In this document: piece after piece, positions 1,846-37,621 of the stretch
Layout of the letters: the number at the start of each line of letters is the position of its first letter
Numbering within the stretch: the first letter of the stretch is position 1
DNA from: a virus
Taxonomy: Duplodnaviria > Heunggongvirae > Uroviricota > Caudoviricetes
DNA length: 64,000 nt
Reading direction: 5' to 3' (one strand)
IMG/VR virus record: IMGVR_UViG_2687453424_000001
The notes under the pieces: generated by a model
Seen by the model: only the letters and a program-made list of their open reading frames with translations
What the model was told of the DNA's origin: nothing
The model's database searches: none
Translations under genes and position numbers: made by a program

Positions 1846-2011
1846 TCTGATTATCAGACCGACGATACGAGTGGGACCGTGGTCCCAGACTAATAATCAG
1901 ACCGACGATACGAGTGGGACCGTGGTCCCAGACTAATAATCAGACCGACGATACGAGTGGGACCGTGGTCCCAGTCTGATTATCAGACCGACGATACAAG
2001 TGGAACAGTGG
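1846..2011. repeat. sopC: sopC centromere-like partition site (partial): tandem 43-bp direct repeats, each with the inverted-repeat SopB binding core tgggaccgtggtccca
   Basis: Three near-identical 43-bp units (gggaccgtggtcccagactaataatcagaccgacgatacgagt) plus a degenerate fourth are visible; the array is truncated on the left by the N run. Position immediately downstream of sopB matches F-plasmid organisation. Confidence 0.9.
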
Positions 2012-2105
2012 GCCCAGAGAGAATATTCAGGCCAGTTATGCTTTCTGGCCTGTAACAAAGGACATTAAGTAAAGACAGATAAACGTAGACTAAAACGTGG
2101 TCGCA

Positions 2106-3077
2106 TCAGGGTGCTGGCTTTTCAAGTTCCTTAAGAATGGCCTCAATTTTCTCTATACACTCAGTTGGAACACGAGACCTGTCCAGGTTAAGCACCATTT
2201 TATCGCCCTTATACAATACTGTCGCTCCAGGAGCAAACTGATGTCGTGAGCTTAAACTAGTTCTTGATGCAGATGACGTTTTAAGCACAGAAGTTAAAAG
2301 AGTGATAACTTCTTCAGCTTCAAATATCACCCCAGCTTTTTTCTGCTCATGAAGGTTAGATGCCTGCTGCTTAAGTAATTCCTCTTTATCTGTAAAGGCT
2401 TTTTGAAGTGCATCACCTGACCGGGCAGATAGTTCACCGGGGTGAGAAAAAAGAGCAACAACTGATTTAGGCAATTTGGCGGTGTTGATACAGCGGGTAA
2501 TAATCTTACGTGAAATATTTTCCGCATCAGCCAGCGCAGAAATATTTCCAGCAAATTCATTCTGCAATCGGCTTGCATAACGCTGACCACGTTCATAAGC
2601 ACTTGTTGGGCGATAATCGTTACCCAATCTGGATAATGCAGCCATCTGCTCATCATCCAGCTCGCCAACCAGAACACGATAATCACTTTCGGTAAGTGCA
2701 GCAGCTTTACGACGGCGACTCCCATCGGCAATTTCTATGACACCAGATACTCTTCGACCGAACGCCGGTGTCTGTTGACCAGTCAGTAGAAAAGAAGGGA
2801 TGAGATCATCCAGTGCGTCCTCAGTAAGCAGCTCCTGGTCACGTTCATTACCTGACCATACCCGAGAGGTCTTCTCAACACTATCACCCCGGAGCACTTC
2901 AAGAGTAAACTTCACATCCCGACCACATACAGGCAAAGTAATGGCATTACCGCGAGCCATTACTCCTACGCGCGCAATTAACGAATCCACCATCGGGGCA
3001 GCTGGTGTCGATAACGAAGTATCTTCAACCGGTTGAGTATTGAGCGTATGTTTTGGAATAACAGGCGCACGCTTCAT
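2106..3077 (-). CDS. sopB: SopB (ParB-family centromere-binding partition protein) of F plasmid / BAC vector
   Basis: 323-aa [42 protein letters not shown]... recognised as F-plasmid SopB; its start codon overlaps the sopA stop (TAATG), flanked by sopA and sopC. Confidence 0.95.
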
Positions 3078-4252
3078 TATCTAATCTCCCAGCGTGGTTT
3101 AATCAGACGATCGAAAATTTCATTGCAGACAGGTTCCCAAATAGAAAGAGCATTTCTCCAGGCACCAGTTGAAGAGCGTTGATCAATGGCCTGTTCAAAA
3201 ACAGTTCTCATCCGGATCTGACCTTTACCAACTTCATCCGTTTCACGTACAACATTTTTTAGAACCATGCTTCCCCAGGCATCCCGAATTTGCTCCTCCA
3301 TCCACGGGGACTGAGAGCCATTACTATTGCTGTATTTGGTAAGCAAAATACGTACATCAGGCTCGAACCCTTTAAGATCAACGTTCTTGAGCAGATCACG
3401 AAGCATATCGAAAAACTGCAGTGCGGAGGTGTAGTCAAACAACTCAGCAGGCGTGGGAACAATCAGCACATCAGCAGCACATACGACATTAATCGTGCCG
3501 ATACCCAGGTTAGGCGCGCTGTCAATAACTATGACATCATAGTCATGAGCAACAGTTTCAATGGCCAGTCGGAGCATCAGGTGTGGATCGGTGGGCAGTT
3601 TACCTTCATCAAATTTGCCCATTAACTCAGTTTCAATACGGTGCAGAGCCAGACAGGAAGGAATAATGTCAAGCCCCGGCCAGCAAGTGGGCTTTATTGC
3701 ATAAGTGACATCGTCCTTTTCCCCAAGATAGAAAGGCAGGAGAGTGTCTTCTGCATGAATATGAAGATCTGGTACCCATCCGTGATACATTGAGGCTGTT
3801 CCCTGGGGGTCGTTACCTTCCACGAGCAAAACACGTAGCCCCTTCAGAGCCAGATCCTGAGCAAGATGAACAGAAACTGAGGTTTTGTAAACGCCACCTT
3901 TATGGGCAGCAACCCCGATCACCGGTGGAAATACGTCTTCAGCACGTCGCAATCGCGTACCAAACACATCACGCATATGATTAATTTGTTCAATTGTATA
4001 ACCAACACGTTGCTCAACCCGTCCTCGAATTTCCATATCCGGGTGCGGTAGTCGCCCTGCTTTCTCGGCATCTCTGATAGCCTGAGAAGAAACCCCAACT
4101 AAATCCGCTGCTTCACCTATTCTCCAGCGCCGGGTTATTTTCCTCGCTTCCGGGCTGTCATCATTAAACTGTGCAATGGCGATAGCCTTCGTCATTTCAT
4201 GACCAGCGTTTATGCACTGGTTAAGTGTTTCCATGAGTTTCATTCTGAACAT
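3077..4252 (-). CDS. sopA: SopA (ParA-family Walker-type partition ATPase) of F plasmid / BAC vector
   Basis: 391-aa ORF containing the deviant Walker A motif ([21 protein letters not shown]) and recognised as F SopA. The annotated start may be the internal Met at 4243 (MKLMETL...). Confidence 0.95.
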
Positions 4253-4259
4253 CCTTTAA

Positions 4260-4345
4260 TCATTGCTTTGCGTTTTTTTATTAAATCTTGCAATTTACTG
4301 CAAAGCAACAACAAAATCGCAAAGTCATCAAAAAACCGCAAAGTT
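4260..4345 (-). promoter_or_regulatory. sopAB promoter/operator region with four CTTTGC motifs (SopA autoregulatory sites)
   Basis: Immediately upstream of the sopA start: one ctttgc and three gcaaag (reverse complement) hexamers within about 80 bp. Established knowledge that SopA binds CTTTGC repeats in its own promoter. Confidence 0.7.
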
Positions 4346-4663
4346 GTTTAAAATAAGAGCAACACTACAAAAGGAGATAAGAAGAGCACATACCTCAGTC
4401 ACTTATTATCACTAGCGCTCGCCGCAGCCGTGTAACCGAGCATAGCGAGCGAACTGGCGAGGAAGCAAAGAAGAACTGTTCTGTCAGATAGCTCTTACGC
4501 TCAGCGCAAGAAGAAATATCCACCGTGGGAAAAACTCCAGGTAGAGGTACACACGCGGATAGCCAATTCAGAGTAATAAACTGTGATAATCAACCCTCAT
4601 CAATGATGACGAACTAACCCCCGATATCAGGTCACATGACGAAGGGAAAGAGAAGGAAATCAA

Positions 4664-4830
4664 CTGTGACAAACTGCCCTCAAATTTGGCTTCCTTAAAA
4701 ATTACAGTTCAAAAAGTATGAGAAAATCCATGCAGGCTGAAGGAAACAGCAAAACTGTGACAAATTACCCTCAGTAGGTCAGAACAAATGTGACGAACCA
4801 CCCTCAAATCTGTGACAGATAACCCTCAGA
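4664..4830. repeat. incC iterons (RepE-binding direct repeats downstream of repE)
   Basis: Repeated tgtgacaaa(t/c)t(g/a)ccctca units at about 4664, 4754, 4789 and 4809, matching the ori2 iteron family and lying at the 3' side of repE. Confidence 0.8.
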
Positions 4831-5628
<798 letters not shown>

Positions 5629-5639
5629 CTAAATAAAAA

Positions 5640-5895
5640 AGAGTCAATAAGCAGGGATAACTTTGTGAAAAAACAGCTTCTTCTGAGGGCAATTTGTCAC
5701 AGGGTTAAGGGCAATTTGTCACAGACAGGACTGTCATTTGAGGGTGATTTGTCACACTGAAAGGGCAATTTGTCACAACACCTTCTCTAGAACCAGCATG
5801 GATAAAGGCCTACAAGGCGCTCTAAAAAAGAAGATCTAAAAACTATAAAAAAAATAATTATAAAAATATCCCCGTGGATAAGTGGATAACCCCAA
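5640..5895. other. ori2 (oriS) replication origin: four 19-bp iterons (5685-5779), AT-rich stretch, and tandem DnaA boxes (5874-5890)
   Basis: Four direct repeats of gggcaatttgtcaca / gagggtgatttgtcacac, AT-rich 5820-5870, then gtggataagtggataac (two TTATCCACA-type DnaA boxes on the complementary strand), all upstream of repE. Confidence 0.85.
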
Positions 5896-6359
5896 GGGAA
5901 GTTTTTTCAGGCATCGTGTGTAAGCAGAATATATAAGTGCTGTTCCCTGGTGCTTCCTCGCTCACTCGAGGGCTTCGCCCTGTCGCTCGACTGCGGCGAG
6001 CACTACTGGCTGTAAAAGGACAGACCACATCATGGTTCTGTGTTCATTAGGTTGTTCTGTCCATTGCTGACATAATCCGCTCCACTTCAACGTAACACCG
6101 CACGAAGATTTCTATTGTTCCTGAAGGCATATTCAAATCGTTTTCGTTACCGCTTGCAGGCATCATGACAGAACACTACTTCCTATAAACGCTACACAGG
6201 CTCCTGAGATTAATAATGCGGATCTCTACGATAATGGGAGATTTTCCCGACTGTTTCGTTCGCTTCTCAGTGGATAACAGCCAGCTTCTCTGTTTAACAG
6301 ACAAAAACAGCATATCCACTCAGTTCCACATTTCCATATAAAGGCCAAGGCATTTATTC

Positions 6360-6810
6360 TCAGGATAATTGTTTCAGCATCGCAACCGCATCAGACTCCG
6401 GCATCGCAAACTGCACCCGGTGCCGGGCAGCCACATCCAGCGCAAAAACCTTCGTGTAGACTTCCGTTGAACTGATGGACTTATGTCCCATCAGGCTTTG
6501 CAGAACTTTCAGCGGTATACCGGCATACAGCATGTGCATCGCATAGGAATGGCGGAACGTATGTGGTGTGACCGGAACAGAGAACGTCACACCGTCAGCA
6601 GCAGCGGCGGCAACCGCCTCCCCAATCCAGGTCCTGACCGTTCTGTCCGTCACTTCCCAGATCCGCGCTTTCTCTGTCCTTCCTGTGCGACGGTTACGCC
6701 GCTCCATGAGCTTATCGCGAATAAATACCTGTGACGGAAGATCACTTCGCAGAATAAATAAATCCTGGTGTCCCTGTTGATACCGGGAAGCCCTGGGCCA
6801 ACTTTTGGCG
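6360..6810 (-). CDS. resD: ResD/redF site-specific tyrosine recombinase (resolvase) of F plasmid, C-terminal part only; 5' part lost in the N run
   Basis: Visible translation ...VTPHTFRHSYAMHMLYAGIPLKVLQSLMGHKSISSTEVYTKVFALDVAARHRVQFAMPESDAVAMLKQLS carries the tyrosine-recombinase catalytic signature (R..H..R...Y) and matches the redF gene of BAC vectors. Confidence 0.85.
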
Positions 6811-9800
6811 NNNNNNNNNNNNNNNNNNNNNNNNNNNNNNNNNNNNNNNNNNNNNNNNNNNNNNNNNNNNNNNNNNNNNNNNNNNNNNNNNNNNNNNNNN
6901 NNNNNNNNNNNNNNNNNNNNNNNNNNNNNNNNNNNNNNNNNNNNNNNNNNNNNNNNNNNNNNNNNNNNNNNNNNNNNNNNNNNNNNNNNNNNNNNNNNNN
7001 NNNNNNNNNNNNNNNNNNNNNNNNNNNNNNNNNNNNNNNNNNNNNNNNNNNNNNNNNNNNNNNNNNNNNNNNNNNNNNNNNNNNNNNNNNNNNNNNNNNN
7101 NNNNNNNNNNNNNNNNNNNNNNNNNNNNNNNNNNNNNNNNNNNNNNNNNNNNNNNNNNNNNNNNNNNNNNNNNNNNNNNNNNNNNNNNNNNNNNNNNNNN
7201 NNNNNNNNNNNNNNNNNNNNNNNNNNNNNNNNNNNNNNNNNNNNNNNNNNNNNNNNNNNNNNNNNNNNNNNNNNNNNNNNNNNNNNNNNNNNNNNNNNNN
7301 NNNNNNNNNNNNNNNNNNNNNNNNNNNNNNNNNNNNNNNNNNNNNNNNNNNNNNNNNNNNNNNNNNNNNNNNNNNNNNNNNNNNNNNNNNNNNNNNNNNN
7401 NNNNNNNNNNNNNNNNNNNNNNNNNNNNNNNNNNNNNNNNNNNNNNNNNNNNNNNNNNNNNNNNNNNNNNNNNNNNNNNNNNNNNNNNNNNNNNNNNNNN
7501 NNNNNNNNNNNNNNNNNNNNNNNNNNNNNNNNNNNNNNNNNNNNNNNNNNNNNNNNNNNNNNNNNNNNNNNNNNNNNNNNNNNNNNNNNNNNNNNNNNNN
7601 NNNNNNNNNNNNNNNNNNNNNNNNNNNNNNNNNNNNNNNNNNNNNNNNNNNNNNNNNNNNNNNNNNNNNNNNNNNNNNNNNNNNNNNNNNNNNNNNNNNN
7701 NNNNNNNNNNNNNNNNNNNNNNNNNNNNNNNNNNNNNNNNNNNNNNNNNNNNNNNNNNNNNNNNNNNNNNNNNNNNNNNNNNNNNNNNNNNNNNNNNNNN
7801 NNNNNNNNNNNNNNNNNNNNNNNNNNNNNNNNNNNNNNNNNNNNNNNNNNNNNNNNNNNNNNNNNNNNNNNNNNNNNNNNNNNNNNNNNNNNNNNNNNNN
7901 NNNNNNNNNNNNNNNNNNNNNNNNNNNNNNNNNNNNNNNNNNNNNNNNNNNNNNNNNNNNNNNNNNNNNNNNNNNNNNNNNNNNNNNNNNNNNNNNNNNN
8001 NNNNNNNNNNNNNNNNNNNNNNNNNNNNNNNNNNNNNNNNNNNNNNNNNNNNNNNNNNNNNNNNNNNNNNNNNNNNNNNNNNNNNNNNNNNNNNNNNNNN
8101 NNNNNNNNNNNNNNNNNNNNNNNNNNNNNNNNNNNNNNNNNNNNNNNNNNNNNNNNNNNNNNNNNNNNNNNNNNNNNNNNNNNNNNNNNNNNNNNNNNNN
8201 NNNNNNNNNNNNNNNNNNNNNNNNNNNNNNNNNNNNNNNNNNNNNNNNNNNNNNNNNNNNNNNNNNNNNNNNNNNNNNNNNNNNNNNNNNNNNNNNNNNN
8301 NNNNNNNNNNNNNNNNNNNNNNNNNNNNNNNNNNNNNNNNNNNNNNNNNNNNNNNNNNNNNNNNNNNNNNNNNNNNNNNNNNNNNNNNNNNNNNNNNNNN
8401 NNNNNNNNNNNNNNNNNNNNNNNNNNNNNNNNNNNNNNNNNNNNNNNNNNNNNNNNNNNNNNNNNNNNNNNNNNNNNNNNNNNNNNNNNNNNNNNNNNNN
8501 NNNNNNNNNNNNNNNNNNNNNNNNNNNNNNNNNNNNNNNNNNNNNNNNNNNNNNNNNNNNNNNNNNNNNNNNNNNNNNNNNNNNNNNNNNNNNNNNNNNN
8601 NNNNNNNNNNNNNNNNNNNNNNNNNNNNNNNNNNNNNNNNNNNNNNNNNNNNNNNNNNNNNNNNNNNNNNNNNNNNNNNNNNNNNNNNNNNNNNNNNNNN
8701 NNNNNNNNNNNNNNNNNNNNNNNNNNNNNNNNNNNNNNNNNNNNNNNNNNNNNNNNNNNNNNNNNNNNNNNNNNNNNNNNNNNNNNNNNNNNNNNNNNNN
8801 NNNNNNNNNNNNNNNNNNNNNNNNNNNNNNNNNNNNNNNNNNNNNNNNNNNNNNNNNNNNNNNNNNNNNNNNNNNNNNNNNNNNNNNNNNNNNNNNNNNN
8901 NNNNNNNNNNNNNNNNNNNNNNNNNNNNNNNNNNNNNNNNNNNNNNNNNNNNNNNNNNNNNNNNNNNNNNNNNNNNNNNNNNNNNNNNNNNNNNNNNNNN
9001 NNNNNNNNNNNNNNNNNNNNNNNNNNNNNNNNNNNNNNNNNNNNNNNNNNNNNNNNNNNNNNNNNNNNNNNNNNNNNNNNNNNNNNNNNNNNNNNNNNNN
9101 NNNNNNNNNNNNNNNNNNNNNNNNNNNNNNNNNNNNNNNNNNNNNNNNNNNNNNNNNNNNNNNNNNNNNNNNNNNNNNNNNNNNNNNNNNNNNNNNNNNN
9201 NNNNNNNNNNNNNNNNNNNNNNNNNNNNNNNNNNNNNNNNNNNNNNNNNNNNNNNNNNNNNNNNNNNNNNNNNNNNNNNNNNNNNNNNNNNNNNNNNNNN
9301 NNNNNNNNNNNNNNNNNNNNNNNNNNNNNNNNNNNNNNNNNNNNNNNNNNNNNNNNNNNNNNNNNNNNNNNNNNNNNNNNNNNNNNNNNNNNNNNNNNNN
9401 NNNNNNNNNNNNNNNNNNNNNNNNNNNNNNNNNNNNNNNNNNNNNNNNNNNNNNNNNNNNNNNNNNNNNNNNNNNNNNNNNNNNNNNNNNNNNNNNNNNN
9501 NNNNNNNNNNNNNNNNNNNNNNNNNNNNNNNNNNNNNNNNNNNNNNNNNNNNNNNNNNNNNNNNNNNNNNNNNNNNNNNNNNNNNNNNNNNNNNNNNNNN
9601 NNNNNNNNNNNNNNNNNNNNNNNNNNNNNNNNNNNNNNNNNNNNNNNNNNNNNNNNNNNNNNNNNNNNNNNNNNNNNNNNNNNNNNNNNNNNNNNNNNNN
9701 NNNNNNNNNNNNNNNNNNNNNNNNNNNNNNNNNNNNNNNNNNNNNNNNNNNNNNNNNNNNNNNNNNNNNNNNNNNNNNNNNNNNNNNNNNNNNNNNNNNN

Positions 9801-11161
9801 NNNNNNNNNNNNNNNNNNNNNNNNNNNNNNNNNNNNNNNNNNNNNNNNNNNNNNNNNNNNNNNNNNNNNNNNNNNNNNNNNNNNNNNNNNNNNNNNNNNN
9901 NNNNNNNNNNNNNNNNNNNNNNNNNNNNNNNNNNNNNNNNNNNNNNNNNNNNNNNNNNNNNNNNNNNNNNNNNNNNNNNNNNNNNNNNNNNNNNNNNNNN
10001 NNNNNNNNNNNNNNNNNNNNNNNNNNNNNNNNNNNNNNNNNNNNNNNNNNNNNNNNNNNNNNNNNNNNNNNNNNNNNNNNNNNNNNNNNNNNNNNNNNNN
10101 NNNNNNNNNNNNNNNNNNNNNNNNNNNNNNNNNNNNNNNNNNNNNNNNNNNNNNNNNNNNNNNNNNNNNNNNNNNNNNNNNNNNNNNNNNNNNNNNNNNN
10201 NNNNNNNNNNNNNNNNNNNNNNNNNNNNNNNNNNNNNNNNNNNNNNNNNNNNNNNNNNNNNNNNNNNNNNNNNNNNNNNNNNNNNNNNNNNNNNNNNNNN
10301 NNNNNNNNNNNNNNNNNNNNNNNNNNNNNNNNNNNNNNNNNNNNNNNNNNNNNNNNNNNNNNNNNNNNNNNNNNNNNNNNNNNNNNNNNNNNNNNNNNNN
10401 NNNNNNNNNNNNNNNNNNNNNNNNNNNNNNNNNNNNNNNNNNNNNNNNNNNNNNNNNNNNNNNNNNNNNNNNNNNNNNNNNNNNNNNNNNNNNNNNNNNN
10501 NNNNNNNNNNNNNNNNNNNNNNNNNNNNNNNNNNNNNNNNNNNNNNNNNNNNNNNNNNNNNNNNNNNNNNNNNNNNNNNNNNNNNNNNNNNNNNNNNNNN
10601 NNNNNNNNNNNNNNNNNNNNNNNNNNNNNNNNNNNNNNNNNNNNNNNNNNNNNNNNNNNNNNNNNNNNNNNNNNNNNNNNNNNNNNNNNNNNNNNNNNNN
10701 NNNNNNNNNNNNNNNNNNNNNNNNNNNNNNNNNNNNNNNNNNNNNNNNNNNNNNNNNNNNNNNNNNNNNNNNNNNNNNNNNNNNNNNNNNNNNNNNNNNN
10801 NNNNNNNNNNNNNNNNNNNNNNNNNNNNNNNNNNNNNNNNNNNNNNNNNNNNNNNNNNNNNNNNNNNNNNNNNNNNNNNNNNNNNNNNNNNNNNNNNNNN
10901 NNNNNNNNNNNNNNNNNNNNNNNNNNNNNNNNNNNNNNNNNNNNNNNNNNNNNNNNNNNNNNNNNNNNNNNNNNNNNNNNNNNNNNNNNNNNNNNNNNNN
11001 NNNNNNNNNNNNNNNNNNNNNNNNNNNNNNNNNNNNNNNNNNNNNNNNNNNNNNNNNNNNNNNNNNNNNNNNNNNNNNNNNNNNNNNNNNNNNNNNNNNN
11101 NNNNNNNNNNNNNNNNNNNNNNNNNNNNNNNNNNNNNNNNNNNNNNNNNNNNNNNNNNNNN
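6811..11161. other. Run of N (gap or masked block) inside the vector segment
   Basis: All n. In common BAC vectors the distance between redF and cat is far shorter than 4.3 kb, so the run length probably does not reflect true sequence length, or it hides an insertion. Confidence 1.
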
Positions 11162-11275
11162 AAATGAGACGTTGATCGGCACGTAAGAGGTTCCAACTTT
11201 CACCATAATGAAATAAGATCACTACCGGGCGTATTTTTTGAGTTATCGAGATTTTCAGGAGCTAAGGAAGCTAAA
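11162..11275 (+). promoter_or_regulatory. cat promoter and ribosome-binding site (Tn9 cassette)
   Basis: Sequence aaatgagacgttgatcggcacgtaagaggttccaactttcaccataatgaaataagatcactaccgggcg...aggaagctaaaATG is the standard upstream region of the Tn9/pACYC184 cat gene. Confidence 0.85.
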
Positions 11276-11935
11276 ATGGAGAAAAAAATCACTGGATATA
11301 CCACCGTTGATATATCCCAATGGCATCGTAAAGAACATTTTGAGGCATTTCAGTCAGTTGCTCAATGTACCTATAACCAGACCGTTCAGCTGGATATTAC
11401 GGCCTTTTTAAAGACCGTAAAGAAAAATAAGCACAAGTTTTATCCGGCCTTTATTCACATTCTTGCCCGCCTGATGAATGCTCATCCGGAATTTCGTATG
11501 GCAATGAAAGACGGTGAGCTGGTGATATGGGATAGTGTTCACCCTTGTTACACCGTTTTCCATGAGCAAACTGAAACGTTTTCATCGCTCTGGAGTGAAT
11601 ACCACGACGATTTCCGGCAGTTTCTACACATATATTCGCAAGATGTGGCGTGTTACGGTGAAAACCTGGCCTATTTCCCTAAAGGGTTTATTGAGAATAT
11701 GTTTTTCGTCTCAGCCAATCCCTGGGTGAGTTTCACCAGTTTTGATTTAAACGTGGCCAATATGGACAACTTCTTCGCCCCCGTTTTCACCATGGGCAAA
11801 TATTATACGCAAGGCGACAAGGTGCTGATGCCGCTGGCGATTCAGGTTCATCATGCCGTTTGTGATGGCTTCCATGTCGGCAGAATGCTTAATGAATTAC
11901 AACAGTACTGCGATGAGTGGCAGGGCGGGGCGTAA
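11276..11935 (+). CDS. cat: Chloramphenicol acetyltransferase (type I, Tn9), vector selectable marker
   Basis: 219-aa [76 protein letters not shown]...[28 protein letters not shown], the canonical CAT-I sequence. Confidence 0.98.
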
Positions 11936-11947
11936 TTTTTTTAAGGC

Positions 11948-12202
11948 CATAGGCAAGGTGAGTTTACACGCGCCATTGTATATCGCGTTCCTACACGCCT
12001 GCCGGTTGGCGACATCAGCCGGCAACATGAGAATGGAAATGGCGGCGATGGAGAGCCCGAAAACGACGACGAATTTGGGGAAATACGCTTGGTTAGCGTC
12101 GTCCGGGTGCTGGTAATTGACGAGGAGGTAGACATTGAAGAGGAACACTAGGACGCATACGATTATGGCGACGATTACCAGAGCGAGGTTGAAATCGCCC
12201 AT
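11948..12202 (-). CDS. Plant LIMR-family (LMBR1-like) membrane protein, exon 1 only; truncated at the vector junction after 85 codons
   Basis: ATG at 12202-12200 gives MGDFNLALVIVAIIVCVLVFLFNVYLLVNYQHPDDANQAYFPKFVVVFGLSIAAISILMLPADVANRQACRNAIYNGACKLTLPM, matching the conserved N-terminus of plant LIMR proteins. Homology ends exactly at 11948, where vector sequence begins. Confidence 0.75.
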
Positions 12203-13378
12203 CGTTAAAAGCCCTCGACTCGATTCGAATCGAATCGATAGCGGTAGATTCAACAGGAGATTTGAGAAATTAGGGTTTGCTTTTAACCCTTCGAATTTTA
12301 ATTCGAAGAATTTCGTAGATCTGAGCTTTCCTCTGTGTGTGTGTGTTTTTTTGAAAGGGAAAGGGGGGAGGTTGGGCTCCGGTGAGGTGGTTTGTTGAAT
12401 TTTGGGGTTAATTTTGACGTGTTGGAATTAAATGACGTTATTATCCTTGTGAATTGGTTAAATGACGGGTTGAAAATAGCGAGGAAGAGAGTTGCAGATG
12501 GGGTTGAATGTAACATCACCTTATATTCCCGTGACAAGCATCGAACCAGCCTGTCCAAGGCAAGAAGTTGTTTTTTAAAAAAAAAATTTACATGTAAGAA
12601 ATAACGCTATTTGAACTTTTAGACCGCTTTCTTTATCTTTTATTCCCGTAGAGAAATTCTCTCAATTTTGTTCTTTTTTTTTCCTCAAATCTTTTATTGT
12701 TCTTAATTATACCCTTCAATTGATATAAAAAAATAATTAGTAATTCTTTTTAGGTACGTAAGATTGAGATACTATTATGAATGAAAATTCTAGCTCAAGC
12801 TCCTCACATTTTATTAACGAACTCTTAAATTTTAATTTAAAACTAAACAAGTTTTTAATTTTAACAAAGATTTAACTGTCATTAGATTCGATGTTAATTG
12901 ACTTTTTTACTCACATGATATATTACTTGACGAATTAACATGATAATGTGATTGTTGACGTGGCTAAAAAAATATAATGAGTTTGGTCACATTAGTTGCG
13001 CGTGACCTCACCAATTCACTAAATCATATATCATGTGGACAGGAAAAATAATTAATATTGACTCTAATATTGATTAAATTTTTATTAAAATTAAAAGCTT
13101 GTTCGATTTTAAATCAAAATTTAAGAGTTTGTTTGAATGCAATAATTAAATAAATGATGATAGTACGTAAAATGTTTTTAGGATTGAAGCCATAATTTTA
13201 AGACAATATAAGCAACAAGTGTCTTATTTACTCATGTTCTCACCTAAAGACTTTTTTATGTTGTTACTTAGTGCATGTTTGGTTTAACTTTTTTTCAGTT
13301 TATCTATTTATTGAAAGTAAAAGTTAGGCCAAATATAATATTTTGAAAAACTCTTAAAAAAAAGTAACTTTTTTTAAG

Positions 13379-16300
13379 NNNNNNNNNNNNNNNNNNNNNN
13401 NNNNNNNNNNNNNNNNNNNNNNNNNNNNNNNNNNNNNNNNNNNNNNNNNNNNNNNNNNNNNNNNNNNNNNNNNNNNNNNNNNNNNNNNNNNNNNNNNNNN
13501 NNNNNNNNNNNNNNNNNNNNNNNNNNNNNNNNNNNNNNNNNNNNNNNNNNNNNNNNNNNNNNNNNNNNNNNNNNNNNNNNNNNNNNNNNNNNNNNNNNNN
13601 NNNNNNNNNNNNNNNNNNNNNNNNNNNNNNNNNNNNNNNNNNNNNNNNNNNNNNNNNNNNNNNNNNNNNNNNNNNNNNNNNNNNNNNNNNNNNNNNNNNN
13701 NNNNNNNNNNNNNNNNNNNNNNNNNNNNNNNNNNNNNNNNNNNNNNNNNNNNNNNNNNNNNNNNNNNNNNNNNNNNNNNNNNNNNNNNNNNNNNNNNNNN
13801 NNNNNNNNNNNNNNNNNNNNNNNNNNNNNNNNNNNNNNNNNNNNNNNNNNNNNNNNNNNNNNNNNNNNNNNNNNNNNNNNNNNNNNNNNNNNNNNNNNNN
13901 NNNNNNNNNNNNNNNNNNNNNNNNNNNNNNNNNNNNNNNNNNNNNNNNNNNNNNNNNNNNNNNNNNNNNNNNNNNNNNNNNNNNNNNNNNNNNNNNNNNN
14001 NNNNNNNNNNNNNNNNNNNNNNNNNNNNNNNNNNNNNNNNNNNNNNNNNNNNNNNNNNNNNNNNNNNNNNNNNNNNNNNNNNNNNNNNNNNNNNNNNNNN
14101 NNNNNNNNNNNNNNNNNNNNNNNNNNNNNNNNNNNNNNNNNNNNNNNNNNNNNNNNNNNNNNNNNNNNNNNNNNNNNNNNNNNNNNNNNNNNNNNNNNNN
14201 NNNNNNNNNNNNNNNNNNNNNNNNNNNNNNNNNNNNNNNNNNNNNNNNNNNNNNNNNNNNNNNNNNNNNNNNNNNNNNNNNNNNNNNNNNNNNNNNNNNN
14301 NNNNNNNNNNNNNNNNNNNNNNNNNNNNNNNNNNNNNNNNNNNNNNNNNNNNNNNNNNNNNNNNNNNNNNNNNNNNNNNNNNNNNNNNNNNNNNNNNNNN
14401 NNNNNNNNNNNNNNNNNNNNNNNNNNNNNNNNNNNNNNNNNNNNNNNNNNNNNNNNNNNNNNNNNNNNNNNNNNNNNNNNNNNNNNNNNNNNNNNNNNNN
14501 NNNNNNNNNNNNNNNNNNNNNNNNNNNNNNNNNNNNNNNNNNNNNNNNNNNNNNNNNNNNNNNNNNNNNNNNNNNNNNNNNNNNNNNNNNNNNNNNNNNN
14601 NNNNNNNNNNNNNNNNNNNNNNNNNNNNNNNNNNNNNNNNNNNNNNNNNNNNNNNNNNNNNNNNNNNNNNNNNNNNNNNNNNNNNNNNNNNNNNNNNNNN
14701 NNNNNNNNNNNNNNNNNNNNNNNNNNNNNNNNNNNNNNNNNNNNNNNNNNNNNNNNNNNNNNNNNNNNNNNNNNNNNNNNNNNNNNNNNNNNNNNNNNNN
14801 NNNNNNNNNNNNNNNNNNNNNNNNNNNNNNNNNNNNNNNNNNNNNNNNNNNNNNNNNNNNNNNNNNNNNNNNNNNNNNNNNNNNNNNNNNNNNNNNNNNN
14901 NNNNNNNNNNNNNNNNNNNNNNNNNNNNNNNNNNNNNNNNNNNNNNNNNNNNNNNNNNNNNNNNNNNNNNNNNNNNNNNNNNNNNNNNNNNNNNNNNNNN
15001 NNNNNNNNNNNNNNNNNNNNNNNNNNNNNNNNNNNNNNNNNNNNNNNNNNNNNNNNNNNNNNNNNNNNNNNNNNNNNNNNNNNNNNNNNNNNNNNNNNNN
15101 NNNNNNNNNNNNNNNNNNNNNNNNNNNNNNNNNNNNNNNNNNNNNNNNNNNNNNNNNNNNNNNNNNNNNNNNNNNNNNNNNNNNNNNNNNNNNNNNNNNN
15201 NNNNNNNNNNNNNNNNNNNNNNNNNNNNNNNNNNNNNNNNNNNNNNNNNNNNNNNNNNNNNNNNNNNNNNNNNNNNNNNNNNNNNNNNNNNNNNNNNNNN
15301 NNNNNNNNNNNNNNNNNNNNNNNNNNNNNNNNNNNNNNNNNNNNNNNNNNNNNNNNNNNNNNNNNNNNNNNNNNNNNNNNNNNNNNNNNNNNNNNNNNNN
15401 NNNNNNNNNNNNNNNNNNNNNNNNNNNNNNNNNNNNNNNNNNNNNNNNNNNNNNNNNNNNNNNNNNNNNNNNNNNNNNNNNNNNNNNNNNNNNNNNNNNN
15501 NNNNNNNNNNNNNNNNNNNNNNNNNNNNNNNNNNNNNNNNNNNNNNNNNNNNNNNNNNNNNNNNNNNNNNNNNNNNNNNNNNNNNNNNNNNNNNNNNNNN
15601 NNNNNNNNNNNNNNNNNNNNNNNNNNNNNNNNNNNNNNNNNNNNNNNNNNNNNNNNNNNNNNNNNNNNNNNNNNNNNNNNNNNNNNNNNNNNNNNNNNNN
15701 NNNNNNNNNNNNNNNNNNNNNNNNNNNNNNNNNNNNNNNNNNNNNNNNNNNNNNNNNNNNNNNNNNNNNNNNNNNNNNNNNNNNNNNNNNNNNNNNNNNN
15801 NNNNNNNNNNNNNNNNNNNNNNNNNNNNNNNNNNNNNNNNNNNNNNNNNNNNNNNNNNNNNNNNNNNNNNNNNNNNNNNNNNNNNNNNNNNNNNNNNNNN
15901 NNNNNNNNNNNNNNNNNNNNNNNNNNNNNNNNNNNNNNNNNNNNNNNNNNNNNNNNNNNNNNNNNNNNNNNNNNNNNNNNNNNNNNNNNNNNNNNNNNNN
16001 NNNNNNNNNNNNNNNNNNNNNNNNNNNNNNNNNNNNNNNNNNNNNNNNNNNNNNNNNNNNNNNNNNNNNNNNNNNNNNNNNNNNNNNNNNNNNNNNNNNN
16101 NNNNNNNNNNNNNNNNNNNNNNNNNNNNNNNNNNNNNNNNNNNNNNNNNNNNNNNNNNNNNNNNNNNNNNNNNNNNNNNNNNNNNNNNNNNNNNNNNNNN
16201 NNNNNNNNNNNNNNNNNNNNNNNNNNNNNNNNNNNNNNNNNNNNNNNNNNNNNNNNNNNNNNNNNNNNNNNNNNNNNNNNNNNNNNNNNNNNNNNNNNNN

Positions 16301-17520
16301 NNNNNNNNNNNNNNNNNNNNNNNNNNNNNNNNNNNNNNNNNNNNNNNNNNNNNNNNNNNNNNNNNNNNNNNNNNNNNNNNNNNNNNNNNNNNNNNNNNNN
16401 NNNNNNNNNNNNNNNNNNNNNNNNNNNNNNNNNNNNNNNNNNNNNNNNNNNNNNNNNNNNNNNNNNNNNNNNNNNNNNNNNNNNNNNNNNNNNNNNNNNN
16501 NNNNNNNNNNNNNNNNNNNNNNNNNNNNNNNNNNNNNNNNNNNNNNNNNNNNNNNNNNNNNNNNNNNNNNNNNNNNNNNNNNNNNNNNNNNNNNNNNNNN
16601 NNNNNNNNNNNNNNNNNNNNNNNNNNNNNNNNNNNNNNNNNNNNNNNNNNNNNNNNNNNNNNNNNNNNNNNNNNNNNNNNNNNNNNNNNNNNNNNNNNNN
16701 NNNNNNNNNNNNNNNNNNNNNNNNNNNNNNNNNNNNNNNNNNNNNNNNNNNNNNNNNNNNNNNNNNNNNNNNNNNNNNNNNNNNNNNNNNNNNNNNNNNN
16801 NNNNNNNNNNNNNNNNNNNNNNNNNNNNNNNNNNNNNNNNNNNNNNNNNNNNNNNNNNNNNNNNNNNNNNNNNNNNNNNNNNNNNNNNNNNNNNNNNNNN
16901 NNNNNNNNNNNNNNNNNNNNNNNNNNNNNNNNNNNNNNNNNNNNNNNNNNNNNNNNNNNNNNNNNNNNNNNNNNNNNNNNNNNNNNNNNNNNNNNNNNNN
17001 NNNNNNNNNNNNNNNNNNNNNNNNNNNNNNNNNNNNNNNNNNNNNNNNNNNNNNNNNNNNNNNNNNNNNNNNNNNNNNNNNNNNNNNNNNNNNNNNNNNN
17101 NNNNNNNNNNNNNNNNNNNNNNNNNNNNNNNNNNNNNNNNNNNNNNNNNNNNNNNNNNNNNNNNNNNNNNNNNNNNNNNNNNNNNNNNNNNNNNNNNNNN
17201 NNNNNNNNNNNNNNNNNNNNNNNNNNNNNNNNNNNNNNNNNNNNNNNNNNNNNNNNNNNNNNNNNNNNNNNNNNNNNNNNNNNNNNNNNNNNNNNNNNNN
17301 NNNNNNNNNNNNNNNNNNNNNNNNNNNNNNNNNNNNNNNNNNNNNNNNNNNNNNNNNNNNNNNNNNNNNNNNNNNNNNNNNNNNNNNNNNNNNNNNNNNN
17401 NNNNNNNNNNNNNNNNNNNNNNNNNNNNNNNNNNNNNNNNNNNNNNNNNNNNNNNNNNNNNNNNNNNNNNNNNNNNNNNNNNNNNNNNNNNNNNNNNNNN
17501 NNNNNNNNNNNNNNNNNNNN
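13379..17520. other. Run of N (gap or masked block)
   Basis: All n. Confidence 1.
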
Positions 17521-20234
17521 CTTCTGTTATTTTAAAAATACAATTAAATTTTTATTTTTATTTCAAAAATATCTTCAATTGTTAAAAATAATTACAATAT
17601 TATTTTTTTTAAAAAATACTTTCTATGATAATTTTAACAAAAATTATAATTTATAAAAAAGAACTTATAAAAAAAATTTACCAAACAACTTTAACTTAAT
17701 TTTAAAAATTATTACTTTTCATAAAAACTTCATAATAGCTTTTATGTTAGAAAAAAGTCAAGTCAAACAAGCTCTTAATTTAATCTTAACAATGGCTTTG
17801 CCTCTATTTGAGCATTAACCACACGTAATGTCATCAAGGGAGAAGAAGTAGTTGCCATTTTGGGCTAGTCATGAATTGAGAAGAGAAGCGTAGCATGAAG
17901 AGTACCTAGCATTGATTGCATTATCAAGCTTATATCTTCATCAGAAACTAAACCCAAATGGCAGAGCAAAACATCAAAATGGGAAGCTTTTTTCCTCATT
18001 TTTTGAATTTCTAGCGCAACCCTTTTCAGAGAACTACTTAGTCATCCTGATATCACCTCCATTTCACCTGTATTTTGTCAGTTCCTTTCATGGCGATGGC
18101 TACAACTTTTTGCACTGCTTCTGTAATGATTCCGAGTAAATAATTATTTGTTGATTATGTACCTTGCTGGTGGTTGGTTTATGTATGATGGAAATCTTAA
18201 TCTTTTCAATTTTCCTGGGAATTTCAGACTGTGACTGTGACCACCATTTCTTTTGATTCTTAATCTATGCCTCATTTGTCAAGAGAAAGAGTTTTCATGC
18301 ATCAGTTGGACCCAGAGTCCTGGATTTAACTTTTAACAGGAACACGTGAAATGATTATATCTTGTCAAATATTTAGACAAAAAGTTATCTCAATTTTGGG
18401 TACAAACTCCTTTCCCTGTATCCTGGAGGACTAGTGGGTAGAGGAGAGAAAGACAGCTGCTTGGTTTTTTTTTTTTTCTTACAATTTCCCCTGTTTTTTC
18501 GTACACGATGCCGCCACAGAGCCTGTACCGAGCTGACAACAACTTTCCATCTACTTCTTGATGAATGACTCTTTTATTCGTTCAATCTTTGCCTTGAATT
18601 GCTTTGCCGGATCTCCCATTCAAATTCTGGGATTGAAACCTGGCAGCAATTCTTTCCTGCCATTACTCTTTGTAGAATAACTCTCCCCGGTAATACCCTG
18701 AATCCATTATTTACTATCCTGGAAGATTGGCTCTATCTGGCAATAGTTTTCTCAAGTTCCAGATTTTCAACTTTCGTTTCTTTCTTTAGCGTTGATCTGA
18801 CAACGTTTCTGTCACTGTCATTCATTCCGATGATGGAGATGGGGAAAAGGGTTAACACCAGATTCAAAATGCAAACATCTAAGACTACGAAATTAATCAA
18901 ACAAGGATTCATTTAGCAGGAACTGGGAAGAACATTAAATGCTGTCTTCAACTTGTAAATTTATACATTGATAAATGAAATCCAAGCAAGTTTTTCACAT
19001 GGATTATGCAGATTGTATATCAGAGAAACTCTTTTCGAGACAGGGCATGTGAAAATCTAGCTGGAAAGCCAAGGGAAAAGCTTTAAAGCTTGATGAATTT
19101 CATCCGGATCTTGTACCACCCTCCCTTGCATAATCCGATAGCCTTCCATCCTTGTCTGAATAAAGATCTGATATCATTACGTTTTACTACCTTCATTTGA
19201 TTATGTCCATCTGCCATTTCCAAACTTGCAAATGAATGTACTCTTCCCTATGATCTTACCCTTTTTCCATTGATGGTGCTTCATCTTTATACTAATAGTT
19301 GATGGCGCTGCTACCAGTCTCCTTTACCCAAGCAACAGATTCAGTTCATTGGCTTCGATTGTTGCTTGCGCCAGTTCTTTGTTAGAGGCTCTAATGAAAT
19401 CCCAACTATTTTAGTTTTATCCGTGCTACTTCTACCGGCGGTTGGACAGTTTTTTCTATGGTCGGAAATTCGCCGGATTAATGCCGCTAATGTATTGATT
19501 AAACCGTATTTAGTTTTCTAACATATGATATTAATTATATGATAACACTCTTTTATCTCATAAATCTCAATTTATCCGTTTTAAACCTTAAATTCCAGAC
19601 TTCTAAAGGTTAGGAATAAAATATCTTTTTGAAAATTATTCGACAACATGACTGTTTTTTAAATATTATTTAAGAACAATTCAATAATTAAGAATAACAA
19701 TAAATACGATAATTATGATTATATTTTTTTATGAAAACAGCATCGATTATTCTTAATTAATATTAATTTTATATGTCATATAAGATTATATAATATCACT
19801 CTTTTATCTCAAAATTTCGGTTCACCCACCTTAAAATTTAAATTCGAAACTTTTAAAAATAGAATTGGGTTTGGAAATTGTTCAAGAGTAATAATCAGTG
19901 ACAGAAACAAATGCCGACAATTATATCTTCCACCAAACCAACGGCGACTATTCAATTCTACCTAACCAAATTTTCGTTTTGACTTTCAACCATCCAATAA
20001 CCTCATGCCACGTCAGAAAGCAACCCCGCATGTAACTACCTTAGCAGATATTAACCGTCACCTCTTCCCGGCTTACTCCAACTACCAGTCGTAGCAAGAA
20101 GAAGAAGACTGATCGGTGAGCTTCCAGTTAACTCCGATTCTTCCACTCTCCTTCATGGACTCTGCTCCCCCAATTCTCCAAACTTCCATTTCTTTAATCC
20201 CTAGCGTCAGGGTTTCCTTCTCGATTTCTCAAAT

Positions 20235-23200
20235 ATGGCGGAGCCAAATCGGAGTTCACCTTCCGCCTCCGCCTCCGCCTCTGCCTCCTCCTCCTCTTCA
20301 TCTTCGTCTTACAGGGAGGATTCAGGCGGTGCGGCCGGGGCGGCGGCGTCGTCTTCGGGTACTTCTTCGCAGGTTCGAGAGGAAGAGGAAGGGCAAGATC
20401 ACGAGTATCGGCAGCATCTGCAGCATTTTCATAACCCTGAGCTAGAGAATCAGCACATTGACCTAGTTTCTTATAGAGGTAACTTATCTGGTTTCGATGA
20501 TTCGTCAACGGTGATTGGAGACGACACGTGGTCTTGCATCATCGTGGTTCTCACTTTTTGGTTTTTCGGTTAGTACCCTTTTCCCCTTTCTCATGAATCG
20601 CTCGTTCTTTACATTTGAAAGTAAAAGCTTTTATCTTATGTTGATTCTTTTCGATTGATTTTCTTTTTGAATCGAACAGTGTCTATGACTTTGATTTTGG
20701 GTGTTTACGGGGCGGTGAATATACGGGTCGGTCCGAATTGTTCCCTTCTACTTCAACCGAATCCTATTTTTGTTCAGAGTGTAAAGGTGATTTGCCTTTT
20801 TCTTTTTTCCTTTCTAATTTTTTGATTCGTTTCATGCTTTTTCTTTAAAGGGAAGGGTGGTTTTTGGGTCTATATCTTATTTGGCTTTGTGTTAGGTTGA
20901 GGAGGTAGATGATACCAAGCCAGGGCTCAAACTATATGGATTTTATAAATCTCCATCTCTTGATGTAGTGACTACCTGGTCTGAAACTCGTACCGCTACT
21001 GTTCAAGCTGATTCTCACAAGGCAAGTTCGGTTTCTTGTTCTGTTTTTTGCTTGAATGTTTTGGTTCTGAACTTGTATTTCATTTCCCAAATTTTTTTTA
21101 TATTATCCAGGAGTGGATTCATTATCTGAACAGGGGCTCTCAAGTTAATATTTCATATAATGTGAACTCAGCAGGCTCCTCTGTTTTCCTTATAATTGCT
21201 CAAGGTATCCTGAAACACTAAAAGCTTTTTCAGAATGTGTTTCTCAAAGAATTATTTTCACAAAGTGTGTGTGGAAATGCTGTAGATTAAGTAATTGAAT
21301 CCTGGGAATCTGATGCTTTAATTCATTTTGTCACATTGCAGGCAGTGAGGGCCTTTCTCAATGGCTTGAGGACCCAACATATCCTAACACCACTTTGTCG
21401 TGGAACATTGTTCGTGGTGAGATGGAAATGCAAAAGTATGAATGTTCTTACTATATAGAGTTTTATGCTGACTTTGATATTACTTTTCGGCAGGAAGTGG
21501 TATGATTCAGCAGGATATATATAGATCTTCAAGTTACTATATTGCACTGGGTAATTTGAACTCAGAGGATGTGGAGGTAATTGAAAAAATTTGACCTGCC
21601 GAGCTTGGTTTGTTGTTTTGGTTCTTTCATTGAAGTTCTGCTAAAATATTTGAGATATTGAGATCAAAACTTCATTGTCTTCTGTTACCAACCTCAGAAA
21701 AGAAACGTTTCATGGTGCTTGTCCCTTTTGATTTGTCAGAATTGATATTATGATATGATTGAAGAATCGGATTAACTTACTAAGAAAGGGTTACTTTAAT
21801 CCATTTAAGCAATGCTACATTGTAACTGTGGTGGAAATATTATAAGTGCAGCAATGTCAAGTAAAACTTTGGGCTGAGGAGGGTGTTTATTTCTGCAAGG
21901 CTGCAGTTATAGAAGTATAGGAATCTATAATATGGATTGACATTTTTATGGTAAACATGAGAACATAAATGCTGCAAGTCTCAATTTACTTTAAAAGTTT
22001 GTATGAATGTCAGATGGACTAATGGGCAAAATTGAATAGCCATGGATCCATTTTCCTAACAATTATTTAAGCATATGACTTCAAAATATTAATTCCAAGA
22101 AACTCAGAACCTGCCAAGTCAGGTTTGAGAGGCAGGTATATATAATGGATATCTCAAGTTCAAGTAAATGCGCTGTAGGTGACAAAAAAGCCTATCATTC
22201 TCTCAGATTTCACTGAACCTTTTCTTTTTATTAGATGCTGTTCCCTTGCCCTTTTTTGTGTTCTTTGGTTTCATCTTTTCACATAAAAATTGAGTTGATT
22301 TTAACATTGAACAGGTGGAGTTAAACATCACAGTCAGGGCTTTCATCTACAATACAACTGAAGCTTACTACAGATGTACCTTCGGTAATGGCCTGTGTAG
22401 CTTGAGTGTTTTGTTTCCTCAGGGAAATTCTGTTGTCTTGACTTCTCCAGGTCTAGAACAGGTAAATCTCTTTTTATTTTAAACCTAAATCCTACTTTCT
22501 ATGTCTTTCTTGAGATTATGTCGTTTTGAAGGCTGTTACAGCGGCATTCCTATGTTATTAGGCATGATAAATATATGTTCTAATGCTTCCGTCTGTGCTG
22601 AATAATTTCTTATCTTTTGAAGTGCTATACTGAATAATTTCTAAATCCTGTTTTAGAAAGTCTTTTCATTTTCTGTTCTCCCTCTTTTTGGCTACTTCAG
22701 AGTACATCTGCAGATGACTGGTCTGTCAGATTGTCATATGGACCAAGATGGATTATATATATAGTTGGCATTGGTAAAGTTCTTTCTTTTAATTACTCTA
22801 AATGCGCAACCTTTACAAATGTTTCATGTTTAAATCTTGAATTCTAATTTTCTTCTTAAAGGTGGAATGACAGCAATCATGTTGGTAGCCTTCAACTTCT
22901 TAAACAAGTTCCAATTTACCCGTGGAGGTGAAACAAATCTTCATTATGGGGAGAATGCTTCTGCAAGGGCCCCTCTGCTTTCTAACAAAGATGATGATAT
23001 CTCAAGTTGGGGTTCATCCTACGATTCTGTCTCAAGTGATGAGGCAGATCTTGAAGATTTTCTGGCAGCAGGTTCTGTTGAAGGGACATCAATAAGAGAA
23101 GGTGAAAACAGTAACAATACCCGACGTCTTTGTGCAATTTGCTTCGATGCTCCAAGGGACTGCTTCTTCCTTCCTTGTGGGCACTGTGTGGCTTGCTTTG

Positions 23201-23463
23201 CATGTGGATCTAGGTAACTACTTTGCATCCTCACCTTTTTTACACGAAAGGTTGCTTTGGAAATAGTCTAGCTTCATTCTTAACCCTGCTCCCAATTTAC
23301 AACAGCAGGCTGTTCATCACCCTTAATGGTTCCCAGAACTTGAAATTTGCTCCTATCTGATGTTGTGCTGTAACTGATCTTTTGCAGAATCGCAGAGGCT
23401 GCTGGAACTTGCCCCATTTGCCGTCGGAACATGAAGAAAGTGAGGAAGATTTTCACAGTATAA
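20235..23463 (+). CDS. RING-type (C3HC4) E3 ubiquitin ligase, APD (ABERRANT POLLEN DEVELOPMENT)-like, 10 exons, about 488 aa
   Basis: Hand-traced exons 20235-20568, 20680-20786, 20896-21021 (GC donor), 21111-21204, 21342-21416, 21494-21576, 22315-22461, 22701-22773, 22862-23213, 23388-23463; total 1467 nt, in frame. N-terminus is Ser/Ala-rich; C-terminus has the RING [41 protein letters not shown]. APD assignment is from memory of the family architecture (internal hydrophobic segments plus C-terminal RING). Confidence 0.7.
20263..20308 (+). repeat. Imperfect trinucleotide repeat (GCC/TCC)n inside APD-like exon 1, encoding a poly-Ala/Ser tract
   Basis: ttccgcctccgcctccgcctctgcctcctcctcctcttcatcttcgtct translates to SASASASASSSSSSSS. 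Confidence 0.8.
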
Positions 23464-27700: not shown

Positions 27701-28502
27701 NNNNNNNNNNNNNNNNNNNNNNNNNNNNNNNNNNNNNNNNNNNNNNNNNNNNNNNNNNNNNNNNNNNNNNNNNNNNNNNNNNNNNNNNNNNNNNNNNNNN
27801 NNNNNNNNNNNNNNNNNNNNNNNNNNNNNNNNNNNNNNNNNNNNNNNNNNNNNNNNNNNNNNNNNNNNNNNNNNNNNNNNNNNNNNNNNNNNNNNNNNNN
27901 NNNNNNNNNNNNNNNNNNNNNNNNNNNNNNNNNNNNNNNNNNNNNNNNNNNNNNNNNNNNNNNNNNNNNNNNNNNNNNNNNNNNNNNNNNNNNNNNNNNN
28001 NNNNNNNNNNNNNNNNNNNNNNNNNNNNNNNNNNNNNNNNNNNNNNNNNNNNNNNNNNNNNNNNNNNNNNNNNNNNNNNNNNNNNNNNNNNNNNNNNNNN
28101 NNNNNNNNNNNNNNNNNNNNNNNNNNNNNNNNNNNNNNNNNNNNNNNNNNNNNNNNNNNNNNNNNNNNNNNNNNNNNNNNNNNNNNNNNNNNNNNNNNNN
28201 NNNNNNNNNNNNNNNNNNNNNNNNNNNNNNNNNNNNNNNNNNNNNNNNNNNNNNNNNNNNNNNNNNNNNNNNNNNNNNNNNNNNNNNNNNNNNNNNNNNN
28301 NNNNNNNNNNNNNNNNNNNNNNNNNNNNNNNNNNNNNNNNNNNNNNNNNNNNNNNNNNNNNNNNNNNNNNNNNNNNNNNNNNNNNNNNNNNNNNNNNNNN
28401 NNNNNNNNNNNNNNNNNNNNNNNNNNNNNNNNNNNNNNNNNNNNNNNNNNNNNNNNNNNNNNNNNNNNNNNNNNNNNNNNNNNNNNNNNNNNNNNNNNNN
28501 NN
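24743..28502. other. Run of N (gap or masked block)
   Basis: All n. Confidence 1.
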
Positions 28503-37506: not shown

Positions 37507-37621
37507 CCAATCGCTTCCTCCAATTGAAATCAACAACTAAAACAAACAAACAAACAAAAAATAGCCTTCATGAAATAAAACGGTGAATTGTTACGGTTTC
37601 TTTTTTCTAGTTTTCTTTGTA

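Follow-up and report, generated by a model that had tools for sequence, protein, structure and literature searches.

A laboratory BAC vector backbone in a 64-kb record filed as viral, most probably left in a gapped draft of a Theobroma cacao clone

All three bacterial artificial chromosome (BAC) libraries of the Theobroma cacao cultivar Matina 1-6, made with HindIII, EcoRI and MboI, were built in the vector pIndigoBAC536 (PMC3173454, Table 1). This plasmid has 7,507 bp and carries cosN, loxP, two NotI sites and HindIII, BamHI and EcoRI as unique cloning sites (PMC3213141). We analyzed a record of 64,000 nucleotides filed in IMG/VR as a virus of the Caudoviricetes (IMGVR_UViG_2687453424_000001, the whole of which we call the window) and, within it, the span 1846-11947, which an earlier reading of the sequence, hereafter the original prediction, had taken for the maintenance module of a mini-F cloning vector. 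We conclude, with a probability of about 0.97, that this span is the backbone of an ordinary single-copy laboratory BAC vector of the pBeloBAC11 family, left in the gapped draft of a Matina 1-6 BAC clone, and that the vector is most probably pIndigoBAC536. The feature is already known, and the evidence leaves no room for a new biological system.

How such a backbone works in Escherichia coli is established knowledge from plasmid F, which is the one basis for all of the following steps. RepE bound to the four iterons of ori2, together with DnaA at two DnaA boxes, would start replication, and the five iterons of incC would titrate and handcuff RepE, which limits the plasmid to 1-2 copies. Partition of the copies would fall to SopA, a ParA ATPase, and to SopB, a ParB protein that sits on the sopC repeats, and SopA would repress its own promoter through CTTTGC repeats. 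The cat gene would provide chloramphenicol selection and the resD fragment would be an inert remnant. In the plant, the backbone has no role.

The span consists of one whole sequenced piece (1846-6810), a run of N (6811-11161) and the opening 786 bases of the piece that follows (11162-11947), and 43% of its 10.1 kb is N. Comparisons were made by megablast against the plasmids of PLSDB and by local BLAST, and the RefSeq annotations of F and pMiniF were mapped onto the window; plasmid F, pMiniF_lacIq and vector-contaminated contigs served as surrogates for a deposited vector sequence. The first part is identical at 4965 of 4965 positions to the laboratory mini-F plasmid pMiniF_lacIq (NZ_CP053593), and 1846-6708 is identical at 4863 of 4863 to plasmid F (NC_002483, from 52186 down to 47324). 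The second part, 11162-11947, matches the vector copies in three contaminated contigs (L009, L011 and L020) at all 786 positions and the cat region of pMiniF_lacIq at 785. Small laboratory mini-F plasmids in PLSDB matched both parts at 100% by megablast. Given identity of 100%, chance is not an issue for the observation. The original prediction had expected near-100% identity in a BLAST search and had named divergence of over a few percent from F or BAC vectors as the sign of a natural plasmid; no such divergence was seen against F, mini-F or the vector copies, and its view of the span as vector backbone rather than a novel element is borne out by the absence of any mismatch to mini-F in the first part and to the vector copies in the second. 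The features that it had named (sopC, sopB, sopA, CTTTGC motifs, incC, repE, ori2, DnaA boxes, a resD fragment and cat) were all found, as listed here together with the first plant feature to their right:

1846-2033, minus strand: truncated sopC, the centromere-like site; of the 12 tandem 43-bp units in F, about 4.4 are present (BLAST register against F and mini-F)
2106-3077, minus strand: sopB, ParB-family partition protein of 323 residues (open reading frame [ORF]; 100% DNA identity to the F coding sequence of WP_000817031.1)
3077-4243, minus strand: sopA, ParA-type partition ATPase of 388 residues as annotated in F (ORF 3077-4252; 100% identity to sopA of F and pMiniF)
4266-4343, minus strand: sopAB promoter/operator region with CTTTGC hexamers (motif search; Tandem Repeats Finder [TRF], period 19 at 4300-4344)
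4578-4834, plus strand: incC, five RepE-binding iterons, TGTGAC...CCCTCA (repeat search, 5 copies)
4831-5586, minus strand: repE, replication initiator of 251 residues (ORF; 100% identity to F repE, WP_000852146.1)
5679-5777, minus strand: ori2 (oriS), four iterons, inverted relative to incC (repeat search, 4 copies)
5874-5889, minus strand: two tandem DnaA boxes of ori2 (TRF, GTGGATAA twice; TTATCCAC twice on the minus strand)
6360-6708, minus strand: 3' fragment of resD, its last 116 codons, "redF" in BAC vector maps (F identity)
6709-6810, plus strand: Tn9-derived sequence upstream of cat (matches pMiniF_lacIq and the vector copies, not F)
6811-11161, no strand: N run in place of a single base, one A of GGCGAAAATGAG (vector copies and pMiniF are continuous here with one extra A)
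11162-11275, plus strand: promoter/leader region of cat, from Tn9 (100% identical to the vector copies)
11276-11935, plus strand: cat, type A-1 chloramphenicol acetyltransferase of 219 residues (ORF, annotation, translation)
11936-11947, plus strand: last 12 vector bases, after the cat stop codon (vector identity ends at 11947)
11948-12202, minus strand: exon 1, codons 1-85, of a cacao gene of the LMBR1/LIMR family, not vector (translation; aligns to the cacao reference locus L024 from position 596)

The ori2-repE-incC replicon of plasmid F is present with all its components, the tandem DnaA boxes reading GTGGATAAGTGGATAA at 5874-5889. The sopA-sopB operon is likewise present with its CTTTGC repeats, 100% identical to the F genes, and would be autoregulated as in F, where these repeats are the established operator of SopA. 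The hexamers lie at 4266 on the plus strand and at 4300, 4319 and 4338 on the minus strand, i.e., one inverted and three direct at 19-bp spacing, for a chance expectation of about 0.15 per 300 bp. Only about 4.4 of the 12 sopC units are readable because the piece begins inside the array, with N before it (TRF gives a period of 43 and 3.9 copies at 1853-2018), and in the BLAST alignments to F and mini-F the remaining units fall beyond the piece.

The arrangement of these parts is that of a BAC vector. Identity to F ends at F position 47324, within the coding sequence 46866-47672 annotated as a site-specific integrase (resD), and the fusion of F to Tn9 at 6708/6709 is base-for-base identical to the join in the laboratory mini-F plasmid. 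The F genes lie on the minus strand and cat on the plus strand, i.e., cat is divergent from repE and sopAB, and an F segment cut in resD, fused to Tn9 cat and oriented in this way is what defines the backbone of such vectors.

The cat gene carries a further mark of engineering. Its sole difference from natural cat is a C to T change at 11494, silent in Phe73 (TTC to TTT), that turns GAATTC into GAATTT at 11489-11494 and destroys the EcoRI site of the gene; no GAATTC is left in 1846-13378. This is an engineered mark of BAC vectors meant for EcoRI cloning. Among the E. coli records listed for the cat piece, 15 of 15 match at 99.9% and none at 100%. About 20 assemblies of unrelated bacteria, among them Gilvimarinus, Polaribacter, Vibrio, cyanobacteria and Alicyclobacillus, carry the exact EcoRI-minus allele on short contigs, a distribution that is explained only by contamination with laboratory vectors. 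In four of these contigs (L009, L011, L019 and L020), DNA of the mini-F backbone is attached to this cat region. In L019, all 786 bases of this region are matched save for one single-base gap. The backbone overlap that spans the resD fragment and the sequence upstream of cat is identical in L009 (844/844) and L011 (799/799). The alignment of L020 extends over the entire backbone (2 mismatches in 4124 bases, and a further 844/844), and a longer backbone stretch of L009 (2470 aligned columns) is 99.3% identical.

Other occurrences of this allele deserve mention in their own right. The records with EcoRI-minus cat (L003-L023), about 20 representative genomes of unrelated bacteria and one IMG/VR "viral" contig, include Raphidiopsis brookii D9 and a contig of 189,660 bp of Herbaspirillum frisingense GSF30; its presence in public assemblies likely reflects vector contamination or engineered markers. 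L019 is CP104070.1, "plasmid unnamed3" of Alicyclobacillus fastidiosus DSM 17978, listed as a complete plasmid of 39,760 bp. Its positions 1-1547 are the resD fragment-cat-NotI-lac promoter-HindIII-BamHI arm of a BAC or fosmid vector with EcoRI-minus cat, and the 21 nt that follow BamHI are the same as in the Aeromicrobium contig L020. With a size that fits a fosmid clone, L019 is perhaps no native plasmid but a laboratory construct. The EcoRI-minus allele flags vector contamination in about 20 public bacterial assemblies.

The name of the exact vector, most probably pIndigoBAC536, comes from the literature and from an anatomy that lacks both the EcoRI site of cat and oriV. Since EcoRI is unique in pIndigoBAC536, its cat gene should have no EcoRI site; we found no explicit statement of this in the literature, which mentions only the uniqueness of EcoRI. 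For another vector, pECBAC1, the literature gave only descriptions of usage. The cat gene of pBeloBAC11, the vector that the original prediction had named for comparison and which we take to be the parent of pIndigoBAC536, presumably has an intact EcoRI site and would differ from the window at 11494, so that pBeloBAC11 itself is probably not the exact vector. Two points weigh against our identification. The sequences compared were surrogates for pIndigoBAC536 and pBeloBAC11, and the cloning cassette, cosN and loxP that define such vectors are not visible in the window. Indeed, loxP, cosN, T7, SP6 and M13 sites, NotI, lacZ alpha with its multiple cloning site, and vector sequence beyond cat were all sought in the whole readable window and none was found, so that the NotI-flanked lacZ alpha cassette with T7/SP6 and the HindIII/BamHI/EcoRI polylinker of BAC vectors is absent from it. 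The position expected for cosN and loxP is left of 1846, where the window holds only N. The missing lacZ and polylinker reflect loss or clipping in the record; they lower the case for a complete vector, not for a vector-derived sequence. "Complete", as the original prediction called the module, was an overstatement: about 4.4 of 12 sopC units can be read, and the cloning cassette, cosN and loxP cannot.

The rest of the window, nuclear DNA of cacao, shows what was cloned. The window is a gapped draft of five sequenced pieces (1846-6810, 11162-13378, 17521-24742, 28503-33221 and 37507-64000), and its plant pieces are 99.7-99.99% identical to chromosome record CM001883.1 of GCA_000403535.1, the cacao Matina assembly (PMC11137319). 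The order and orientation of the pieces agree with the cacao reference. Positions 1-1845 are N, and four further runs of N, of 4351, 4142, 3760 and 4285 bases, separate the pieces:

6811-11161, 13379-17520, 24743-28502 and 33222-37506: runs of N between the sequenced pieces

We estimated the true length of these runs by aligning the window to the reference locus of the same genotype (L024) and, for the run within the vector, by using the vector copies. The runs of 4142, 3760 and 4285 N correspond to 53, 24 and 312 bp in L024, where the sequence behind them consists of A/T homopolymers, an (ATA)n microsatellite and a C14 run. The run of 4351 N within the vector is flanked as ...TTTTGGCG[N x 4351]AAATGAGACG, where L009, L011, L020 and pMiniF_lacIq read TTTTGGCGAAAATGAGACG. 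To judge from these alignments, the runs of N are oversized placeholders in a rough draft, and no hidden insertion is needed. An insertion sequence, transposon or extra module behind the 4351-N run was considered and is ruled out by the single base that lies between the flanks in the vector copies. The runs overstate the gaps by about 14-fold to about 4000-fold and are unusable as real distances. The breaks of the draft fall in tandem repeat and low-complexity DNA, and nearly all differences between the window and the Matina reference are indels in homopolymer length (12577, 12674, 18465, 23980, 24736, 32930 and 33085), which are probably sequencing errors of the draft and not polymorphism.

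The genes of the insert follow the order of the cacao reference: LMBR1, APD/RING, PDX1, rhodanese and symplekin, with DnaJ-like and 2-oxoglutarate (2OG)-oxygenase-like ORFs further right in the window. The LMBR1-like gene has plant homologs that carry PF04791 and is up to 93% identical to plant proteins. Its first exon runs to about 117 residues in the homologs, while the copy in the window is cut after codon 85; the rest of the exon was sought elsewhere in the window, in case pieces had been shuffled, and was not found. The remainder of the gene lies outside the clone, at L024 1-595. Position 11948 marks the start of the cloned insert, and the truncation is caused by the end of the clone and not by biology, even if it could be mistaken for a disrupted gene. 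The protein of the intronless PDX1 gene (29172-30101, plus strand), a pyridoxal phosphate synthase subunit, has an exact match in six cacao assemblies. PDX1 is overlapped by an antisense ORF of 249 residues (29241-29990, minus strand), which is presumably spurious. PDX1 has bacterial relatives and is here an ordinary plant gene in a normal chromosomal context, and the statement that the mini-F module is the only prokaryotic system in the window holds.

The junction between vector and plant, at 11947/11948, is not a cloning site. Vector identity stops at 11947, 12 nt past the stop codon of cat, in all comparisons, including those with natural Tn9 contexts, whereas genuine vector copies continue AGTTATTGGTGCCC... 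after the last shared base. From this base, their arm holds NotI at +116, the lac promoter, the M13-reverse and SP6 sites, HindIII at +365 and BamHI at +395 to +400, and it measures exactly 400 nt to the end of GGATCC (L020 6445-6844). On the plant side, 11948 begins CATAGGCAAGG... and equals position 596 of the cacao reference locus L024. The join is blunt. The sequence around the breakpoint is ...GAGATCCTT|CATAGG in the reference and ...TTAAGGC|AGTTATT in the vector; the two share no base there and show no microhomology, and there is no HindIII, BamHI or EcoRI site within 1.5 kb of the join. The reference has a GATC at L024 589-592, 7 nt from the breakpoint, and a distance of 10 nt or less to a GATC holds for only 2-4% of the positions of the reference locus. 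An MboI fragment starting with GATCC would regenerate a BamHI site. Hence, the insert was probably cloned MboI-into-BamHI at L024 position 589, and 402 nt were lost afterwards, namely the 400-nt arm to the end of BamHI plus 2 nt or, counted otherwise, 395 nt of vector plus GATCCTT. The original prediction had placed all parts in exactly the order and orientation of BAC vectors; this is right for the features themselves and fails at the boundary between cat and insert, where these 402 nt are missing.

We consider it somewhat more probable than all other origins taken together that partial vector trimming removed the polylinker arm from the consensus. The loss of exactly 400 nt favours this explanation, with a partial "splice-site" file of the vector as the trimming template. 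If so, the intact clone would run from cat through AGTTATTGG... and the polylinker to GGATCCTTCATAGG, and the normal boundary of the insert would be polylinker-GATCCTTCATAGG. In the cacao BAC project, reads were trimmed by Lucy with a pIndigoBAC536 splice file and then clipped after cross_match -screen (PMC3154204). A pipeline of this type may have produced the clipping in the present record. Three observations weigh against clipping: the two extra plant bases lost (TT) are unexplained by it, as is the escape of 5.75 kb of backbone from the same trimming, and a blunt join without microhomology is equally expected from a chimeric read or subclone.

An unlikely alternative, if the strongest one, is that the BAC clone itself suffered a physical deletion. 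About 395 nt of vector arm and 7 nt of insert end would have been lost through nuclease nibbling or a broken arm, and illegitimate joining would have given a viable, chloramphenicol-resistant white colony. In its favour, no part of the vector on that side is dispensable other than the stretch that holds the breakpoint, which lies past the cat stop by 12 nt and ahead of the cloning site. A GATC is found 7 nt away on the plant side, and order and orientation match the layout of a real clone. However, vector lost to exactly 400 nt at the end of BamHI resembles a trimming file more than random nibbling, and the join has no microhomology, of which illegitimate joins in E. coli usually show some. 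If the deletion were real, it would be an example of how far the arms of BAC vectors can erode in viable library clones.

More doubtful still is a chance chimera of the assembly, in which a chimeric read, a chimeric subclone or a mis-join would have brought vector and plant together at a place that has nothing to do with the true cloning junction. The lack of microhomology and restriction site at a blunt join would fit it, as would the general state of the record, a rough draft with oversized runs of N, homopolymer-length errors and breaks in tandem repeat or low-complexity DNA. Yet the vector breaks inside the 400-nt arm, with side and orientation both right, for which we estimate a random expectation of about 400/7507 x 1/2, or about 3%, and the plant breakpoint is no more than 10 nt from a GATC, as are 2-4% of positions; the two coincidences together are unlikely. 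A linker-less 454 paired-end chimera was also considered as the origin of the join and rejected, by reasoning only, on the ground that its geometry does not fit a 3-kb library.

That the span is natural DNA, from a wild F-like (IncFIA) plasmid or from E. coli contamination of the sample, is very improbable. Thousands of plasmids of Enterobacteriaceae do match the sopAB/repE region, and catA1 also occurs on natural plasmids and chromosomes. However, F identity stops in resD, which is fused to Tn9 cat as in laboratory constructs, the cat gene has the engineered silent change that kills EcoRI, and the piece is joined directly to cacao DNA. F backbone past the f5 segment and natural divergence, the marks of a natural conjugative F-like plasmid, are both absent, divergence being zero. 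Neither tra, ccd nor other F or E. coli chromosomal DNA was found in the stretches that were searched: megablast against E. coli genomes gave no match in 11948-33221 or 39001-64000, and 37507-39000, covered by a k-mer check only, shares no 16-mer with F or mini-F and aligns to the cacao reference. Finally, a transgenic or horizontally transferred copy of the vector in the cacao genome, interrupting the LMBR1-like gene, is suggested by the direct contact between vector and truncated exon but has a negligible probability, since six cacao assemblies, one of the same genotype among them, have an intact locus that shares no 20-mer with the vector part, which means that the vector is not in the plant genome, and the window lacks the remainder of the gene, as expected if the insert starts here.

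The value of these results is practical only. The vector is a contaminant and not a biological feature, and the advice to mask it before any interpretation of the plant sequence was sound: 1846-6810 and 11162-11947 (5.75 kb) should be masked before cacao annotation. If left unmasked, sopA, sopB, repE and cat might be taken for bacterial genes associated with the plant or for cases of horizontal transfer.

Compared with known systems, the span shares with plasmid F (NC_002483 47324-52186, the mini-F or f5 segment, IncFIA) the 3' end of resD, ori2, repE, incC, sopA, sopB and sopC. F extends on both sides, into ccdAB and the complete resD on one and into the rest of sopC and beyond on the other, whereas the F segment of the window ends in resD, where it is fused to cat, and its sequenced piece begins within sopC. 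pMiniF_lacIq, from the NEB Express Iq strain, has the same fusion of resD fragment and cat, with the 4965/4965 and 785/786 matches given above; it differs by keeping the EcoRI site in cat and by having lacIq beyond cat. Vectors of the pCC1BAC/pCC1FOS type, represented by L009 and L020, share with the window the mini-F backbone, EcoRI-minus cat (786/786) and the sequence on both sides of the N run, across which they are continuous, but they carry in addition, where window position ~5968 has its equivalent, an iteron-rich block of about 620 bp. We take this block to be RK2 oriV, the mark of copy-control vectors of the pCC1 type. pCC1BAC and pCC1FOS are ruled out as the vector, as the window has no oriV block and is colinear with F at ~5968. 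With regard to pIndigoBAC536, the window represents 5,752 of its 7,507 bp (4965 + 1 + 786), and it differs in that about 7.6 sopC units, cosN, loxP, both NotI sites, lacZ alpha, T7/SP6 and the polylinker lie outside the readable window and that the 400-nt arm from cat to the BamHI site is missing at the join. What the two have in common is the mini-F ori2/repE/incC/sopABC fused through the resD fragment to Tn9 cat, a cat gene without EcoRI site, as the unique EcoRI site of pIndigoBAC536 implies, and a backbone free of oriV.

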